Shown: positions 8,915 through 20,192, counted from the stretch's first letter. The stretch is 64,000 nucleotides of DNA from Steroidobacteraceae bacterium (GCA_965279735.1 OZ257260.1:2161279-2225278), one strand, 5' to 3'. Program-made: numbers and translations. The notes: a model not told the origin generated them from the sequence alone.

Positions 8915-11323
8915 TCAGGCAGTTGCAAGGCTCTGGATTGCCGGCGCCAGACCCGCCACGGACGCCTTTTCCACCTTGATCGTTCCCCAGGGTGACGTAC
9001 GCAGCCATTCTTCCAGGCGCTGCGCCGAGAGCGGTGGACTCATGAAATAACCCTGCGCCTGATCGCAACCCAGCTGCTTCAGCAGCTTGAGGCCTGCCTC
9101 GTCTTCAACGCCTTCTGCAACAACCTTGAGGCCGAGGTTATGGCCAAGCTCGATGGTTGAACGGACGATCGTCGATGTCGTCGGGTCGGATGACATCCGC
9201 ATCACGAACGAACGGTCGATCTTGAGCTCGTCTACCGGCAGACGAACGATATAACTGAGCGATGAGTATCCTGTCCCGTAATCGTCGATCGACAGATGGA
9301 TACCGAGACCATGCAGGCGATCCAGAACCTTCTGCGCATGCGCCGGATCTTCCATGAAGCCGCTTTCGGTGATCTCGATGCACAGCAGGTCGGCAGGGAC
9401 TTCGTGCGCCTTCAGGAGCTGTGCGACGAGATCCGGAAGCTCGCGATTCATCAGATCCCTGGCCGAGATATTCACCGAGACCCTGAGCAGCAACCCTTTC
9501 GCCCGCCATTCACCGCATTGACGAATTGCTTCATTCAATACCCAGCGCGTCAGAACCTTTATATAGCCGGTGTGCTCGGCAAAGGGAATGAATTCACCGG
9601 GCGACACGAATCCCCGCGTCGGGTGGTCCCAGCGCAACAAGGCTTCGACCGCACCTGCCGCCGAAGTGGCGAGTGAAACCTTCGGCTGATAGAAAACCTT
9701 GAGTTCGTTTTTCTCGACCGCCCGACGCAGCTCACCGAGCATCGATAGATGCTCCTGCTGATGCGTGTCGTATTCAGGGTCGTAGGTTGCAAACCCGCTC
9801 TTGTTCCGCTTGGCTACGTACATGGCAATGTCTGCGTTGCGCAAAAGCGTGCTGGCATTCTCGCCGTGCTGGGGAAAGTGTGCGATGCCAATACTGGTTC
9901 CAACGTCAAGCGGCTGGCTCTCGTATGAAATCGGCACCTCAAGGGCACGAGTGATCTTGTGGGCCACTCGCGATACATACTCCGGCTTGGCAGTCGGCAA
10001 CAGGACCGCGAACTCGTCGCCTCCCAGACGCGCTACAGTGTCGGAGGAACGCAGTAGATCCCGCAGCCGTACCGCAACTTCCTTGAGGACATGGTCGCCA
10101 ACGCCGTGCCCCAGTGTGTCATTCACGTATTTGAAGCGGTCAAGATCCATCATCAGGATGGTGAGCGGCGCAGCAGTGCGTTGCGAATGCTCGATGGCAG
10201 TCGTCAGGCGCTCGTTGAACAATGCGCGGTTGGGCAGCCCGGTCAACGTATCCTGGTAAGCGAGCCGCAGAATTTCCTGCTCGCGCTCGGCGATACCCGA
10301 TCGCATCTGGTCGAGGCTACTCGCCAGCACGCCGATCTCGTCCCTGCGCTCGACGATGACCTGTGCGGTGTAATCGCCTTTCTGGATCCTGGTGGCCGCG
10401 CGAACCAGTTCGCCGAGCGGGCGCGTAATACCCAGTGCGATTGCAATGCTGCCGGCGATGGACAGCAGCAGGCTGAAGGCAGCGAGCGCGACCAGCGTGT
10501 CCCGTAACCGGTCAAAAGCCGCAATGGCAGCCGCGACTGAACGCTGCAAAACCGCCACGACCTTGGTGTCGGCATGCTGCTTCAGTTCAATGACACGCAA
10601 CTGCTGCTCGGATTCGCCAGTACCGATGCGATCCGCATCGAGCGCGTGCGGCAGATCCGGAAGCTCGGCCTGGAGCAGGTTCTTGGCATCCTGATCAAGG
10701 GTGGACGCAAGCATCGTCCACTCACTGCCGGCTCCCCGGTCAAGAAATGAAACCTCAAGTGAAGTCAGTTGGCGCAGTTCGGCAGCCAGCGCATCGTCTA
10801 CCGTGCGCCCCACTGCGATCCACGCAATGGGAATCGGCGCCAGCACCGGGACAACGACCAGCTGGTACGCATGATTTTCGAGCAGCTCGATTGACGACAC
10901 GCTGCCTTCGCGCTGTGCCGATTCCATCATCGAAGGAAAATCGAAGGCGCGCGACGCAGCCTCGGGATGGAGAGTATCGGCAAGCACCTTGCCATCTAGC
11001 GACACCAGCATCATCGCGTTGGCATCGATGCGCGCCCCGTGGTTCTGGAGGGCCGACAGCACAGTACCGAGATCATTGGTGGCAATGGCTTCACGGAAAG
11101 CAAAATCGGCAGCCAGGACCTTGGCTGCCTGCAGTAGACGCTCCCGGTTCTGCTCCAGCAGACGCTCGAAGATGCGTTCGCCGACGCCGAGCTCCCCGTC
11201 GATCTTCTGCCGCGCATTCGTCGAATTGGCGGCATTTACCGCGACGAATGCCGCGAGCTGCACCAGGGCCAGCAGCGCCACAAAGAACACGATGATCCGT
11301 GTTCGCAGGCGGCGAAAATTCAC
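8915..11323 (-). CDS. periplasmic-sensor GGDEF-EAL protein (diguanylate cyclase/phosphodiesterase) with HAMP
   Basis: 802 aa. An N-terminal TM, a ~250-aa extracytoplasmic region, a second TM and a HAMP domain precede the GGDEF motif (RLGGDEFAVLLP). The EAL domain carries VEALLRW, DDYGTGYSSLSY and EGVE. Confidence 0.9.
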   Translation of the reverse strand: MNFRRLRTRIIVFFVALLALVQLAAFVAVNAANSTNARQKIDGELGVGERIFERLLEQNRERLLQAAKVLAADFAFREAIATNDLGTVLSALQNHGARIDANAMMLVSLDGKVLADTLHPEAASRAFDFPSMMESAQREGSVSSIELLENHAYQLVVVPVLAPIPIAWIAVGRTVDDALAAELRQLTSLEVSFLDRGAGSEWTMLASTLDQDAKNLLQAELPDLPHALDADRIGTGESEQQLRVIELKQHADTKVVAVLQRSVAAAIAAFDRLRDTLVALAAFSLLLSIAGSIAIALGITRPLGELVRAATRIQKGDYTAQVIVERRDEIGVLASSLDQMRSGIAEREQEILRLAYQDTLTGLPNRALFNERLTTAIEHSQRTAAPLTILMMDLDRFKYVNDTLGHGVGDHVLKEVAVRLRDLLRSSDTVARLGGDEFAVLLPTAKPEYVSRVAHKITRALEVPISYESQPLDVGTSIGIAHFPQHGENASTLLRNADIAMYVAKRNKSGFATYDPEYDTHQQEHLSMLGELRRAVEKNELKVFYQPKVSLATSAAGAVEALLRWDHPTRGFVSPGEFIPFAEHTGYIKVLTRWVLNEAIRQCGEWRAKGLLLRVSVNISARDLMNRELPDLVAQLLKAHEVPADLLCIEITESGFMEDPAHAQKVLDRLHGLGIHLSIDDYGTGYSSLSYIVRLPVDELKIDRSFVMRMSSDPTTSTIVRSTIELGHNLGLKVVAEGVEDEAGLKLLKQLGCDQAQGYFMSPPLSAQRLEEWLRTSPWGTIKVEKASVAGLAPAIQSLATA

Positions 11324-11967
11324 GGGGCCGCCCCGTGGTCAGCGTGATCCTGCATCGCAGGCGAAATGGCATCCAGCTGAAACGCCTCGTCAGCCTGCCC
11401 TTCAGCCAGTTGCATCTTCCGCGTTACCGGCTCGCGCAAAGCAGAGTGCCAGACGTTCAGGACGTAGTCGCCAGCCGGCAGATTTTTCACCGCTGCCCGC
11501 CCATCGGCGTCAGAGCGGGAGAACCAGGGAGTGTCCACCACCACTACCCACGCCACCATCTTGTCGTGGATGTTGCAACCGAGAACGACAACACCGGGCT
11601 TGTCGAAGACCACCGGCTCGGAAGGCCGACCGGAGTAAAGCTTCGTATTGAAGACCTTGGCCGGCGAGAACGAATAGACCTGGTGACGGATGTTGTCGCT
11701 GTTGGGGAAGCTGACCGCGGCACCTGTCTGGATAACAGTAACGGCCGGTATGAACATCTTGTTGACCTGGTCGATCTCCGCCTTTTTCGGCGCATGCAGA
11801 TTGGCTCCCGGATTCGCAGGGACCGCATAGACGACGGCATTTTCAAGTGGCTTGCCATCACTGTCAGTTACCTTCACCGCCAGCTCGGCAGCGTTCGCCA
11901 CCAATGCGGACAGCATCAGCATGAGACCGACGTACAGCAAACAGCAACCGGTGGAACGGATACTCAC
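11320..11967 (-). CDS. exported cupredoxin-like protein (family often annotated 'methylamine utilization protein')
   Basis: 215 aa with a signal peptide (LMLMLSALVANA|AE). A candidate type-1 Cu ligand set is His in NIRHQVYSF plus LGCNIHDKM (C-x2-H-x2-M, the same spacing as amicyanin CTPHPFM). It overlaps both neighbouring genes by 4 nt. Confidence 0.6.
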   Translation of the reverse strand: MSIRSTGCCLLYVGLMLMLSALVANAAELAVKVTDSDGKPLENAVVYAVPANPGANLHAPKKAEIDQVNKMFIPAVTVIQTGAAVSFPNSDNIRHQVYSFSPAKVFNTKLYSGRPSEPVVFDKPGVVVLGCNIHDKMVAWVVVVDTPWFSRSDADGRAAVKNLPAGDYVLNVWHSALREPVTRKMQLAEGQADEAFQLDAISPAMQDHADHGAAP

Positions 11968-12404
11968 TTAGTAACCACATCGCGCTTCATGGGCGCCAGC
12001 AGTGCGAGCAGTTCGTTTCGCTCGCGCAGCCCGACTTCATGGCGAATCATGATCTCGCGCAGCAGCTCGACCATCCCGTACATTTCCGCTTCGGTGATGT
12101 TGAGGCCCGCATGCACGTCGACCATCGTGTCTCCGGTGTAGGTGCAGGGCCCGCCCGCCAGAGCGCAGATCTGCTCGATCAGCATTGTCTTCACGCGAGG
12201 AATGTTCACGCCCTCGAATGAGCGCTTGAGTTCGGGCTTTGCCGCCGTCTCATCGATCAGCTCATTGGACACCGCTGCAACGGTGGTTGCCCCGCCCATG
12301 CGTTCATACAACGTAGGAATGCCGGTTTCTGCGGCAATCACGGCGCGAGCAAGCAGTCCGGAGGCAACGACCGCCAGAGCCAGCGGCAGAACGCGAATCA
12401 GCAT
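11964..12404 (-). CDS. group 1 truncated haemoglobin with N-terminal signal peptide
   Basis: 146 aa. TLYERMGGATTVAAV...ICALAGGPCTYTGDTMVDVHAGLNITEAEM matches the trHbN pattern (GGP..Y.G..M...H..L.I). A hydrophobic leader MLIRVLPLALAVVASGLLARAVIA precedes the globin domain. Confidence 0.75.
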   Translation of the reverse strand: MLIRVLPLALAVVASGLLARAVIAAETGIPTLYERMGGATTVAAVSNELIDETAAKPELKRSFEGVNIPRVKTMLIEQICALAGGPCTYTGDTMVDVHAGLNITEAEMYGMVELLREIMIRHEVGLRERNELLALLAPMKRDVVTK

Positions 12405-12624
12405 GGAATTTCCCCGGGATGAGCCAAGAAATACGGGTGGACGTATGTCAAATGCCAGGGCGCAACCGTAACGGCACGCGGCTTTGGGGCGATGTTAAGT
12501 TGCTCACAGGTCAGGGGACCCGCCCGGAGGCAGGCGACGCAACATAAGAGGTCTGTGAAGCAGGTCGTACGCGGCGCCTGGCAATCAGGGTATCTAGCCT
12601 CCGCGTAGCTCCCTCAGGACCCGT

Positions 12625-13512
12625 ATGACGCGCATGAAACCAAGCCATTCAGATCTCGCGAGACGCCTGCTTCCAGTGCTTTTTGCTTCCTTGCTGGCAG
12701 GCCACCCCGCCATGGCAGCCGGCAACCGTCTGCTTGCCACCGGCGGCGTAATGCAGGTCGAAGGGGCCGCTGGCGGAGGACTCGTCCCCTGGGCATTCAT
12801 TGCGGGCCTCGGCACCCGCGATCAGGTCGGAGTCAGCGCGTTCTGTACGCGTGTCGAACCCGATGACTTCCGGCTCACGAGCTGCGGACTCGGAGTCGGT
12901 GTGTTCGATCGCCTGGAGGTGTCATTCGCGCGCCAGAAGTTCGACCTTGGTACCACGGTGGCGGGTGAATCCATCCGGCAGGACATTTTCGGAGTGAAGT
13001 ACAAGCTCCTTGGTGACGCGGTGTATGACCAGGATTCCTGGGTGCCGCAGGTTGCGTTCGGGCTCCAGTACAAGAAAAACGAGGACTACGATTTCGTACC
13101 CGCACTCCTTGGGGCGAAGGACGATTCAGGCATCGACTACTACGTATCGGCTACCAAGGTCTATCTCGCCGGACCGCTGGGGCGGACCTGGCTCCTGAAC
13201 GCCACCCTGCGTGCCACCAAGGGCAACCAGCTCGGGATCCTGGGTTTTGGCGGCGATCGCGATGATGGCTACCGGTTCGAACCGGAAGTCAGTGCGGCCG
13301 TATTCCTGCATGACCATCTCGTGCTGGGCGCCGAATACCGCGCGAAACCCGACAATCTCAGCGTTTTCAAGGAAGACGATTTCTGGGACGGCTTCGTCGC
13401 GTGGATTCCGCACAAGTCCGTGTCGCTGACGCTGGCTTACGCGGACCTCGGCAACATCGCGGACAAGGCCGACCAGCGCGGCCTGTACGCATCAGTGCAG
13501 GTCAGTTACTGA
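12625..13512 (+). CDS. DUF3034-like exported protein, probable outer-membrane beta-barrel
   Basis: 295 aa with a signal peptide (LFASLLAGHPAMA|AG). It has alternating beta-strand-like segments and an aromatic C-terminus (YASVQVSY). The family assignment is from memory. Confidence 0.55.
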   Translation: MTRMKPSHSDLARRLLPVLFASLLAGHPAMAAGNRLLATGGVMQVEGAAGGGLVPWAFIAGLGTRDQVGVSAFCTRVEPDDFRLTSCGLGVGVFDRLEVSFARQKFDLGTTVAGESIRQDIFGVKYKLLGDAVYDQDSWVPQVAFGLQYKKNEDYDFVPALLGAKDDSGIDYYVSATKVYLAGPLGRTWLLNATLRATKGNQLGILGFGGDRDDGYRFEPEVSAAVFLHDHLVLGAEYRAKPDNLSVFKEDDFWDGFVAWIPHKSVSLTLAYADLGNIADKADQRGLYASVQVSY

Positions 13513-19094: not shown

Positions 19095-20192
19095 TCAACC
19101 AGGCTCGGCTTCGACCCGATTCCGCCCATTCTGTTTCGCGCGGTACAGCGCCACATCCGCAGCACCGAACAGCCGCTCGGCCACGGCCTTGAGGTCGGTT
19201 TCGTCGCGCGCCAGACTGGCAGCCGCCATCCCGATTGATACGGTCAAGGTTCGCTCAACACCTGCCGTCACTTCGAGAGGCGTGCCGTTCACCGCGGCAC
19301 GGATGCGCTCAGCGAGAATCTTCGCCTGCTCAAGGCTCGCATTCGGCAGCAACACCACGAACTCATCGCCCCCATACCGCGCCGCCGCGTCGCTCGAACG
19401 CACCTGCGAATCGACACGCTGGGCAACTTCCCTAAGCGCGACGTCGCCTGCCAGATGCCCGAACTGGTCGTTGATCTCCTTGAACCGATCGAGATCGATG
19501 AGCAGGCAGACGAGGCTCGTTCCCTGCCGCCGCGCCTTGGCGAGTTCTTCCATCAGACGCGCCTGCAGATAGCGGCGGTTATGCCAACCCGTCAGGAAAT
19601 CGGTGAGCCCGCTGCGGACCAGGCGCGAGCGATTGATCGCGTTCTCGATGGCGAATGAAACCATCACGCCGAGATGGGCAAAGAAATCCGTCGCAAGATG
19701 GCGGGTAAACCGTTTCTCATCGCGGCTGCCGAACACGATGCAGCCATGCAGCTTGTCCTGGCGACGCAGCGGAATCAGCGCGACACTGCGGATGTCCGCC
19801 GCGTTTCGCAACAGCAACTGGTGATCAGGGCCCATGTAGGGACCGAGCCAGGGTTTGTGCAGGGCGTGGAACTGCGGCGCCATGCCTACGACGCTGTCCG
19901 TGAAAACCACTTCGGGAAACTGCTCGAGGCTCACCTGGTCGCCGAGCAGGAGATGACGGATTTCATGCTGTGGATCGGCCAACACCAGCGCGACAGCATC
20001 CAGACCGTATGATTCGCGGAGACGCCTGGCAATGACTTCGAACAGCTGCGGCAGTGTTTCCGCACGCAGGATCTCGAATTCGCGCTCCTGGTTTCTCTTC
20101 AGCAGACGTTCGTTGTGGCCCGCCTCTTCGATCAAGGCAGCGATTCGCGCACGCAGCTCCCGGTTCTCGCCTTCCGGATCGCGTGCGGACAT
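19095..20192 (-). CDS. cytoplasmic sensor-domain (GAF/DUF484-like) diguanylate cyclase
   Basis: 365 aa. The GGDEF domain carries RYGGDEFVVLLP and an RxxD-like I-site region. There are no TM segments. Confidence 0.85.
   Translation of the reverse strand: MSARDPEGENRELRARIAALIEEAGHNERLLKRNQEREFEILRAETLPQLFEVIARRLRESYGLDAVALVLADPQHEIRHLLLGDQVSLEQFPEVVFTDSVVGMAPQFHALHKPWLGPYMGPDHQLLLRNAADIRSVALIPLRRQDKLHGCIVFGSRDEKRFTRHLATDFFAHLGVMVSFAIENAINRSRLVRSGLTDFLTGWHNRRYLQARLMEELAKARRQGTSLVCLLIDLDRFKEINDQFGHLAGDVALREVAQRVDSQVRSSDAAARYGGDEFVVLLPNASLEQAKILAERIRAAVNGTPLEVTAGVERTLTVSIGMAAASLARDETDLKAVAERLFGAADVALYRAKQNGRNRVEAEPG

Follow-up and report, generated by a model that had tools for sequence, protein, structure and literature searches.

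Why should the genes of an exported haem protein, an exported copper-type protein and a membrane enzyme for the turnover of cyclic dimeric guanosine monophosphate (c-di-GMP) be chained to one another, and why should they face the gene of a predicted outer-membrane protein? The question is raised by positions 8,915 to 13,512 of a 64,000-nucleotide stretch of DNA from a Steroidobacteraceae bacterium (GCA_965279735.1 OZ257260.1:2161279-2225278), the whole of which is called the window here. Three minus-strand genes encode a truncated haemoglobin, a 215-residue cupredoxin-like protein and a dCache_3-HAMP-GGDEF-EAL enzyme, and a gene of the DUF3034 family is transcribed away from them (Table 1). 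Comparison across genomes shows that the locus is the joining of two autonomous, tightly coupled gene pairs, cupredoxin with sensor enzyme and DUF3034 protein with globin. We read these as two units of envelope signalling, the first being the core and the second an optional further input, and give this overall picture a probability of about one half. The parts had been described in a first-pass annotation, and most of that description stands: ORF calls (open reading frames, ORFs) and the junction sequence place the four genes and both 4-nt overlaps at the same coordinates, the globin has its hydrophobic leader in addition to a Bac_globin match, the leader-bearing protein has its histidine (in IRHQV) and its C-x2-H-x2-M motif (CNIHDKM), with all four ligands invariant, and the GGDEF-EAL enzyme has its sensor region, a dCache_3 domain, between two transmembrane (TM) helices ahead of HAMP. 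The divergent gene, called DUF3034-like and described there as having a signal peptide and a VQVSY C-terminus, matches the full length of the Pfam profile and is therefore a genuine family member.

Gene neighbourhoods were compared from two sides. The cupredoxin-anchored scan took one genome per species and covers the best 80 of at least 599 relatives, and the DUF3034-anchored set consists of 80 loci from metagenome contigs; the frequencies given here come from the closest relatives and may differ in distant members. Among the species-level cupredoxin loci with at least 2.5 kb of sequence downstream, a dCache_3 sensor gene directly follows the cupredoxin gene in 69 of 70, its output being GGDEF-EAL in 68 and a class III cyclase in one, and two further relatives likewise encode dCache_3-HAMP-Guanylate_cyc. 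This pair spans Beta-, Gamma- and Alphaproteobacteria, Acidobacteriota and Nitrospirota. Its genes stand 4-6 nt apart in RefSeq annotations and overlap by 4 nt in the window, these being the two sources of intergenic distances, our own ORF starts being over-extended. The second pair is also close-knit: the globin gene adjoins DUF3034 in 71 of the 80 DUF3034-anchored loci and in all 23 that have at least 3.5 kb on both sides, the gap is -1 to 11 nt in RefSeq annotations, and wherever DUF3034 is present in the cupredoxin-anchored loci it adjoins the globin.

The two pairs meet often, and the DUF3034-globin pair shifts as a whole among three layouts relative to the other. Both DUF3034 and the globin are present in 26 of the 54 cupredoxin loci with at least 6 kb on both sides; across the 80 genome loci they lie divergently upstream as in the window (21), on the same strand upstream (Caballeronia) or downstream of the enzyme (Herbaspirillum, Undibacterium and Pseudomonas; 9). 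Seen from the other side, 18 of the 23 well-flanked DUF3034 loci have a cupredoxin-like gene, 13 a dCache_3 sensor and 12 the layout of the window. Flanking genes were unrelated in the DUF3034-anchored loci inspected, a Burkholderia plasmid and a Novosphingobium plasmid in RefSeq carry the same four genes, and all-against-all clustering of the 80 cupredoxin-anchored loci brought out no further recurrent gene family. The first-pass annotation had made its proposal depend on co-occurrence in related genomes, and the four genes do recur, amid unrelated flanks, in Steroidobacteraceae, Methylophilaceae, Burkholderiaceae, Oxalobacteraceae, Pseudomonas and Novosphingobium. All 20 homologues aligned share the predicted metal ligands described below, and the genes keep their adjacency across phyla, so that the association goes beyond chance.

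What did not stand is the proposal that the four genes form one obligate unit, and the loci in which they part also weigh against our own picture. Globin and DUF3034 are both absent within 8 kb in 26 of the 54 well-flanked cupredoxin loci, and the globin occurs without DUF3034 in two of them; conversely, five of the 23 well-flanked DUF3034-globin loci have neither cupredoxin nor sensor, and one locus (L075) has a cupredoxin-Ig gene (Ig, immunoglobulin-like) without a sensor gene downstream. Because the pairs occur apart, the link between the units is facultative and could be one of co-regulation only.

The 215-residue protein has a hydrophobic leader at residues 5-33 by hydropathy, ending in VANA ahead of AE. 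His95, Cys131, His134 and Met137 are invariant in the 20 homologues aligned, which are 47-67% identical to the window protein. The spacing in the Cys131 loop is of the amicyanin type, the 36 residues from His95 to Cys131 come near the typical range of about 38-47, and the loop is kept in the divergent relatives L111, L112, L154, L156 and L126. The same 20 homologues share an unusually large invariant polar cluster (D66, Q67, N89, D91, N92, R94, Y98, S99, S101, K109, Y111 and D135). The AlphaFold2 model, with a predicted local distance difference test score (pLDDT) of 80.5, inserts a cupredoxin domain (about residues 60-145) into a CarboxypepD_reg-like Ig sandwich (residues 27-50 and 149-197), and CarboxypepD_reg is the sole match of the protein in Pfam (146-193). 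When the model is compared with the PDB by Foldseek, pseudoazurin 8k9p is the first match (E=1.5e-4, probability 1.0), and the other top matches, all with probability 1.0, include the extra cupredoxin domain of Thermus NirK, plastocyanins, amicyanin and the purple cupredoxin 5fc9 of Nitrosopumilus; target-normalised template modelling (TM) scores against cupredoxins are 0.5-0.65. A bridge to the canonical family is provided by the cupredoxin of locus L126, which passes the Pfam PF00127 threshold (27.9 bits) and which HHalign aligns with the family profile at 96% probability (E=3.9e-9), with all four ligands in register. From fold, motif and this bridging alignment, on which the assignment rests, we conclude that the protein is a cupredoxin with a predicted type-1 copper site fused into an Ig-like domain. 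Over 7,000 homologues are on record in the protein database, which JGI calls 'plastocyanin' and NCBI/RefSeq 'methylamine utilization protein'. Distant cupredoxin-Ig paralogues of 30-33% identity are found on plasmids of Phyllobacterium zundukense (L165, 5770-6486), Sinorhizobium and Rhizobium. These rhizobial genes adjoin an SCO-family copper chaperone, hemA, a metallophosphoesterase and a cbb3-type oxidase-like operon, with no sensor beside them.

The enzyme to which this protein is coupled runs, by Pfam and hydropathy, from TM1 (residues 5-34) through a periplasmic dCache_3 domain to TM2 (residues 273-303), HAMP, GGDEF and EAL. The dCache_3 domain carries a conserved patch, D72..F75..A78..D83..T86..S89.L91.N93..R97..A101, each residue of which is kept in at least 90% of 88 homologues. 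Both catalytic domains are intact in the window enzyme (RSSD-x5-GGDEF, EALLRW, N618, E650-x-T-E653, DD680-681, K701-x-D703, E737-G-V-E740 and Q757-G), which is thus a predicted bifunctional GGDEF-EAL protein. In the family the two domains are kept to different degrees: the EAL motifs E-x-L-x-R-W, N and E-x-T-E are unchanged in 88 of 88 homologues and DD, K-x-D, E-G-x-E and Q-G are retained in 86-87 of them, whereas the first glycine of GGDEF is retained in 66, leaving the motif intact in about three quarters, and the RxxD I-site is poorly conserved. Since EAL is nearly invariant and GGDEF degenerate in about a quarter of the family, the motifs predict c-di-GMP hydrolysis as the conserved output, while the GGDEF domain of the window enzyme is itself likely, again as a prediction, to make c-di-GMP or to sense GTP. 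In three relatives the cupredoxin is followed by dCache_3-HAMP-Guanylate_cyc (L062, 3917-5965; L066, 8537-10462; L103, 4957-6870), so that, judged by the domains, one and the same input feeds another second messenger.

The globin belongs to Bac_globin (PF01152, E=1.4e-11, 45 bits against a cut-off of 21), has the 'MGG' and 'AGGP' motifs of the Gly-Gly hinge by which TrHbN proteins are recognised, and finds its closest solved structures in the TrHbN of Shewanella benthica (SbHbN; E=1e-16) and HbN of M. tuberculosis (about 1e-9 to 3e-10). Its distal pocket is apolar, with Ile B10, Val E7, Leu E11 and Met G8, and the 115 family members drawn from related loci are much alike: CD1 is Phe in 112, B10 is Ile, Leu, Val or Met in 102 and Tyr in ten (all Caballeronia or Trinickia among those inspected), and E7, E11 and G8 are hydrophobic. 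The Tyr B10/Gln E11 network of TrHbN-1, the nitric oxide (NO) dioxygenase type, is thus lacking in the window globin and in most members, and the residues of the window protein fit the pattern of the TrHbN-2 subgroup, whose apolar pocket is associated with low O2 affinity (PMC11904497). SbHbN, a TrHbN-2 protein (PDB 8TLS, 7TT9, 8UGZ; PMC11904497), shares the hydrophobic B10, E7, E11 and G8, Met E10 and Cys E16; it differs in being a cytoplasmic protein of 116 residues without a leader, in its residues at CD1 and B13, which are Tyr and His against Phe and Thr in the window globin, and in having Gln at the second cysteine of the C-x6-C pair, the first (E16) being Cys51 in the native protein. The SbHbN paper (PMC11904497) mentions neither periplasm nor operon nor diguanylate, and 'neighbor' and 'signal' occur, among the matches listed, in crystallographic and nuclear magnetic resonance usages. 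We infer that the C-x6-C pair, which is peculiar to the exported globins, is a candidate periplasmic disulfide, because the second position in SbHbN is Gln and the two cysteines of that protein cannot bond.

A leader for export is a family trait of the globin. The window leader, hydrophobic at residues 1-27, is of the Sec type and extends from residue 1 to about 25, and a hydrophobic leader is present in 111 of 114 members; such assignments rest on hydropathy, AxA sites and family-wide conservation. A regular expression finds a lipobox ahead of a cysteine in 40 of the 114, of which some are false by eye, leaving about a quarter to a third of the family as genuine, with Methylophilaceae, Pseudomonas and Usitatibacter among them. 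The examples seen have no Asp at position +2, so that by the Escherichia coli rule these predicted lipoproteins would be sorted to the outer membrane, and the leaders inspected show no sign of a twin-arginine motif, so that export would take place in the unfolded state. The locus thereby points to a large clade of truncated haemoglobins that are exported and in some cases lipidated, and for which the periplasmic loading of haem b calls for an explanation. A truncated haemoglobin of Herbaspirillum seropedicae, encoded by a 501-bp ORF and possibly an orthologue, has reportedly been studied by spectroscopy, and the globin ORF of Herbaspirillum robiniae (L078) measures 501 bp. The strongest library matches to the window globin are tandem-TrHbN proteins encoded outside the window (P0244-P0256 and others), with 12 globin stretches in 1,882 residues, nine in 1,386 or eight in 1,120. 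P0249 (two domains) and P0245 (four) have N-terminal signal peptides and P0249 retains C-x6-C; judged by their sequences, exported poly-globins appear to be a sizeable, unexplained group.

The protein with which the globin travels matches DUF3034 (PF11231) at E=4.8e-106 over profile positions 1-255 of 255, has a leader ending in AMA ahead of A, and belongs to a highly conserved family of more than 6,000 homologues. No NCBIfam model matches it, the globin or the 215-residue protein. Its AlphaFold2 model (pLDDT 77) has 12 long strands within residues 68-294, and Foldseek puts FapF, OmpG, NanC and KdgM on top, with E down to 6e-8 and a target-normalised TM-score reaching 0.8 (KdgM). FapF, NanC and KdgM are 12-stranded outer-membrane barrels that agree with the model in strand number and size, whereas sequence identity is about 10%, no sequence homology with them is detectable, and the DUF3034 profile has no meaningful match among PDB sequences. 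The C-terminus is an aromatic beta-signal, SxQxS[F/Y] across the family and VQVSY in the window. With its leader, its even strand number and this C-terminus, the DUF3034 protein is a predicted outer-membrane beta-barrel. Its best-conserved part is an N-terminal glycine-rich stretch (residues 35-63, RLLATGGVMQxEGSAGGGLVPWALIAGLG), modelled with low confidence, which could be a plug or docking segment; FapF has an N-terminal plug segment.

How an exported protein might work through such an enzyme is suggested by two known systems. In the polyamine sensor NspS-MbaA of Vibrio cholerae (PMC8079147, PMC8967002), the gene directly before mbaA is nspS, whose product attaches to the periplasmic domain of MbaA (PMC8079147), setting the phosphodiesterase/cyclase balance of this inner-membrane GGDEF/EAL enzyme, as is proposed here for the cupredoxin; the GGDEF motif of MbaA is degenerate (SGDEF), like that of a quarter of the present family. 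In contrast to the cupredoxin, NspS is a solute-binding-protein fold that binds polyamines, and the present module implies no small-molecule ligand and often has the barrel and globin pair attached. PruR of Agrobacterium tumefaciens is a periplasmic pterin-binding protein encoded in an operon with the dual GGDEF-EAL enzyme DcpA, the operon being widespread in Proteobacteria, and its complex with the periplasmic domain of DcpA needs reduced pterin, that is, depends on the redox form of the cofactor, tetrahydro- or dihydro-pterin (PMC11194511); here the cofactor would instead be protein-bound copper, plus haem in a separate protein. The arrangement common to both, an exported partner encoded directly upstream of a TM-periplasmic-TM-GGDEF-EAL enzyme, is the one found in 69 of 70 genomes. 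Membership of the NspS or PruR family is rejected, as the partner is a cupredoxin with an Ig sandwich and has neither the solute-binding-protein fold nor the MoCo-like pterin-binding fold.

For an outer-membrane component that feeds a c-di-GMP enzyme, the nearest analogue is YfiBNR (TpbB) of Pseudomonas and E. coli, in which an outer-membrane protein, a redox-sensitive periplasmic regulator and an inner-membrane enzyme with periplasmic sensor and HAMP are combined in a reminiscent geometry. YfiB, however, is no barrel but an OmpA/Pal-like lipoprotein, YfiR does not belong to the metalloproteins, YfiN acts solely as a cyclase, and we know of no sequence relationship with the present module. Haem-linked c-di-GMP enzymes include the globin-coupled sensors DosC and BpeGReg, DosP, and the partners of H-NOX and NosP; these sensors are cytoplasmic, fused or soluble, and have sensor-globin, PAS, H-NOX or FIST-type folds, the H-NOX proteins of facultative aerobes also having apolar distal pockets. 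The present globin, by comparison, is a truncated 2-on-2 globin, exported and often lipidated, and it is tied first to a barrel and only facultatively to the enzyme. Pfam finds no globin-coupled sensor, H-NOX or NosP domain in the four proteins, the globin being a separate, leader-bearing TrHbN, and membership of those groups is rejected.

Each of the domain families is already known, as are partner-dependent periplasmic c-di-GMP sensors as a kind. The first-pass annotation had held the combination to be uncharacterised, and in the literature searched, which included few subscription journals, there is indeed no description of the module, no metalloprotein partner of a periplasmic c-di-GMP sensor, no case of a truncated haemoglobin, exported or lipidated, that goes with an outer-membrane barrel, and no role for DUF3034, a family met there in passing mentions with no paper devoted to it. 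The locus gives DUF3034 its first functional context. Periplasmic-sensor c-di-GMP enzymes are abundant and few of their signals are known, and periplasmic partners such as NspS, PruR and YfiR are emerging as a general solution. The present module would add metalloproteins to these partners, with at least 599 relatives in several phyla, and it is a testable candidate for the coupling of extracytoplasmic copper, redox or NO-type cues to biofilm decisions in Gram-negative bacteria.

Of the model that we favour, the domain identities, the export leaders, the invariant ligand residues, the predicted folds and the conserved adjacency are established, whereas metal and haem binding, the contacts between the proteins, the signal itself and the way in which it regulates are predictions. 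In the first and core unit, the exported cupredoxin-Ig protein, in the window translationally coupled to the inner-membrane sensor enzyme, would be the physiological ligand of the periplasmic dCache_3 domain, its binding being altered by the state of the copper site, for which we favour Cu(I)/Cu(II) redox, with apo versus holo protein as the alternative. On the precedents of NspS-MbaA and PruR-DcpA, the copper-site state is proposed to set the phosphodiesterase/cyclase balance through dCache_3, HAMP then tipping the enzyme towards synthesis of c-di-GMP or towards its hydrolysis, which is the conserved activity. The cupredoxin is taken for an input subunit because it persists through changes of output domain, whether or not a globin is present, and a role as co-sensor of the dCache_3 enzyme is the part of the model that we regard as probable. 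The optional second unit would consist of the DUF3034 barrel and the exported haem globin, a predicted lipoprotein in many relatives, which would be located with the barrel at the outer membrane, react with a small oxidant or gas, and pass information to the cupredoxin, by electron transfer or sequestration, and so to c-di-GMP. NO, nitrite or peroxide would be likelier ligands than O2, because the pocket is apolar. This specific role for globin and barrel as a second input is tentative and on balance doubtful. In its most explicit form, a barrel-held haem globin that meets NO, nitrite or an oxidant would exchange an electron with the type-1 copper protein, whose oxidation state, in place of a small molecule, would be read by dCache and conveyed to c-di-GMP or a cyclic nucleotide monophosphate. 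We consider such a metalloprotein relay unlikely; if true, it would give a Cache sensor its first protein-redox-state ligand, and exported bacterial haemoglobins and DUF3034 a physiological role for the first time. As for the gas/redox-to-c-di-GMP coupling put forward as a candidate in the first-pass annotation, specificity for c-di-GMP has to be given up in view of the class III cyclase relatives, and with an apolar pocket O2 is not the obvious reading of the gas.

Other readings of the same genes have to be weighed, and it is mainly the sensor adjacency (69/70), the globin adjacency of about 50% and the swaps of output domain that discriminate among them. The cupredoxin-Ig protein might be a copper-availability sensor, reporting its own metallation as apo or holo form to dCache_3, with the globin pair unrelated or co-regulated. 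The complete and invariant set of copper ligands, the SCO copper chaperone and haem-copper oxidase genes beside distant paralogues and the self-sufficiency of the cupredoxin-sensor pair in half of the genomes are in keeping with this; type-1 sites, however, bind copper very tightly and classically serve electron transfer, not reversible metal sensing, and no copper-resistance or homeostasis genes recur in the 80 loci, and we think it unlikely without dismissing it. The locus might also encode a metabolic or detoxification chain, in which a periplasmic globin handles NO, nitrite or peroxide, the cupredoxin serves as its electron donor and the GGDEF-EAL enzyme is a mere neighbour. Group N truncated haemoglobins include NO dioxygenases and cupredoxins are electron carriers, both of which would suit such a chain. 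SbHbN, the nearest solved relative, moreover reacts with peroxides (PMC11904497). It is the sensor, however, to which the cupredoxin is tied, the globin being its neighbour in only about half of the loci; the cupredoxin stays with dCache_3-HAMP when the output is swapped, and no reductase, cytochrome or denitrification gene recurs nearby, all of which makes the chain improbable.

An obligate four-protein gas/redox sensor, with the globin as primary O2 or NO receptor, the cupredoxin as redox partner and DUF3034 as an integral part, would explain why the window layout is repeated identically, co-directional and often overlapping, in 21 of the 80 cupredoxin loci (the best of at least 599) and in 12 of the 23 DUF3034 loci, and why the four genes recur amid unrelated flanks. 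It is hard to reconcile with the roughly half of cupredoxin-sensor loci that have no globin or DUF3034 within 8 kb, with the DUF3034-globin pairs that stand alone and with a globin that in most members is without Tyr B10 and Gln E11, a kind of pocket associated with low O2 affinity (PMC11904497), and seems to us distinctly unlikely. The cupredoxin-like protein might, lastly, be a MauL-like maturation factor that builds a cofactor or modification in a periplasmic partner, possibly the sensor domain itself. Many homologues bear the RefSeq/NCBI name 'methylamine utilization protein', and the conserved polar cluster round the metal site (D66, Q67, N89, D91, N92, R94, Y98, K109, Y111 and D135) suits an enzyme better than a simple electron carrier; no NCBIfam model claims the 215-residue protein, however, and mau (methylamine dehydrogenase) genes are absent from the window flanks examined and from the recurrent genes of about 160 related loci, so that this role is very improbable. 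Membership of a MauL or methylamine-utilisation family is rejected on gene context, there being no mau cluster (similarity to MauL itself was not compared), and a misleading database name is thereby corrected.

To the facultative link between the units, the two-unit picture has further points to set against it. No cupredoxin model of Pfam or NCBIfam matches the 215-residue window protein, PDB sequence and family-profile searches with it give no significant cupredoxin match, and the confidence of the AlphaFold2 model is lowest at the His95 loop (pLDDT below 50). From the SCO and oxidase context in rhizobia, a copper-handling role is possible for the wider cupredoxin-Ig superfamily. A globin with a Sec or lipoprotein leader would need to acquire haem b, which it is predicted to bind, in the periplasm, and every protein-protein contact in the favoured model is a proposed one.

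Several loci vary the arrangement in instructive ways. In L126 (1779-6576), DUF3034 and globin are followed in order by a canonical cupredoxin of 126 residues (PF00127, no Ig) and a hybrid histidine kinase that combines HAMP, two receiver domains and Hpt, by its domains a two-component version of the module; a cupredoxin beside this other kind of output fits an input role. L077 (Undibacterium sp., 5607-8668) has two tandem DUF3034-globin pairs downstream of one cupredoxin-sensor pair. In L139 (6118-9359), a GGDEF-EAL ORF with no detectable dCache_3 shares its 5' end, in a different frame, with a cupredoxin-like ORF, and DUF3034 and globin come directly after; a further variant or a frameshift is possible. 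In six cupredoxin-anchored loci the globin occurs without a detected DUF3034, three of them Trinickia and three short contigs. The Trinickia loci (L018, L027 and L065), the sole well-flanked ones of this kind, have the globin upstream of the cupredoxin, no DUF3034 detected in the upstream flank, and Tyr at B10. In L075 (6352-8630), the ORF ahead of the cupredoxin gene ends in the manner of an outer-membrane protein (...TWNYRF) and is distinct from DUF3034.

Table 1. Features of the four-gene locus, with positions counted from the first letter of the window.
Feature	Position	Strand	Basis
Sensor enzyme, 802 aa	8915..11323	-	ORF call, Pfam, hydropathy
EAL domain, aa 531-764	9032..9733	-	Pfam, E=1e-76
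EALLRW motif	9629-9646	-	translation
GGDEF domain, aa 355-508	9800..10261	-	Pfam
GGDEF motif RSSDTVARLGGDEF, intact, with RxxD I-site	10010-10051	-	translation
HAMP domain, aa 295-343	10295..10441	-	Pfam PF00672, E=1.3e-11
dCache_3 sensor domain, aa 44-214	10682..11194	-	Pfam PF14827, E=2e-13
GTGA overlap, cupredoxin stop / sensor enzyme start	11320..11323	-	sequence
Exported 215-aa cupredoxin-like protein, candidate co-sensor	11320..11967	-	ORF call, Pfam, AlphaFold2, Foldseek, HHalign
Cys131-Asn-Ile-His134-Asp-Lys-Met137, predicted copper ligand loop	11557..11577	-	translation; C, H and M invariant 20/20
His95, predicted N-terminal type-1 copper ligand (IRHQV)	11683..11685	-	translation; invariant 20/20; aligns with canonical cupredoxin His
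GTGA overlap, globin stop / cupredoxin start	11964..11967	-	sequence
Exported group-1 (TrHbN-2-like) truncated haemoglobin, 146 aa	11964..12404	-	Pfam Bac_globin, PDB matches, hydropathy
Proximal His (F8), residue 98, in DVHAG	12111..12113	-	translation; 115/115 family members
Cys80 (E16)...Cys87 (EF loop), C-x6-C, in CALAGGPC	12144..12167	-	translation; 113-114/115 members
Divergent intergenic region, globin operon/DUF3034, 220 bp, presumed bidirectional promoter region	12405..12624	.	sequence
DUF3034 protein, 295 aa, divergent	12625..13512	+	Pfam PF11231, AlphaFold2, Foldseek

At the two minus-strand junctions the stop and start codons share GTGA, in the contexts 'aaGTGAgta' and 'ccGTGAatt'. 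A sigma-70 consensus scan of the divergent intergenic region gave no match above shuffle expectation, promoter and terminator consensus scans stayed at shuffle level, and an Rfam scan of the 64-kb window gave no matches.

The flanks of the locus consist of unrelated housekeeping genes (HemJ, RppH, Ppx, an ErpA-like protein, a bactofilin with DUF6776, and iron-type ABC transporters). The HemJ-type protoporphyrinogen oxidase gene (8367-8900, plus strand), whose TIGR00701 match is barely over the cut-off, ends 15 bp from the stop of the sensor enzyme. To find a gene of haem biosynthesis beside a haem-protein operon is suggestive, but a link between the two is rejected, as the HemJ gene is convergent, does not flank the module in the annotated relatives L001 and L002 and is not among the recurrent families across the genome loci. 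A second c-di-GMP gene, encoding a DUF484/GAF-GGDEF protein of 365 residues, lies 8 kb off at 19095-20192 on the minus strand. On the other side, at 7041-8278 on the minus strand, the bactofilin gene stands directly 3' of the DUF6776 gene, and the two are probably co-transcribed.

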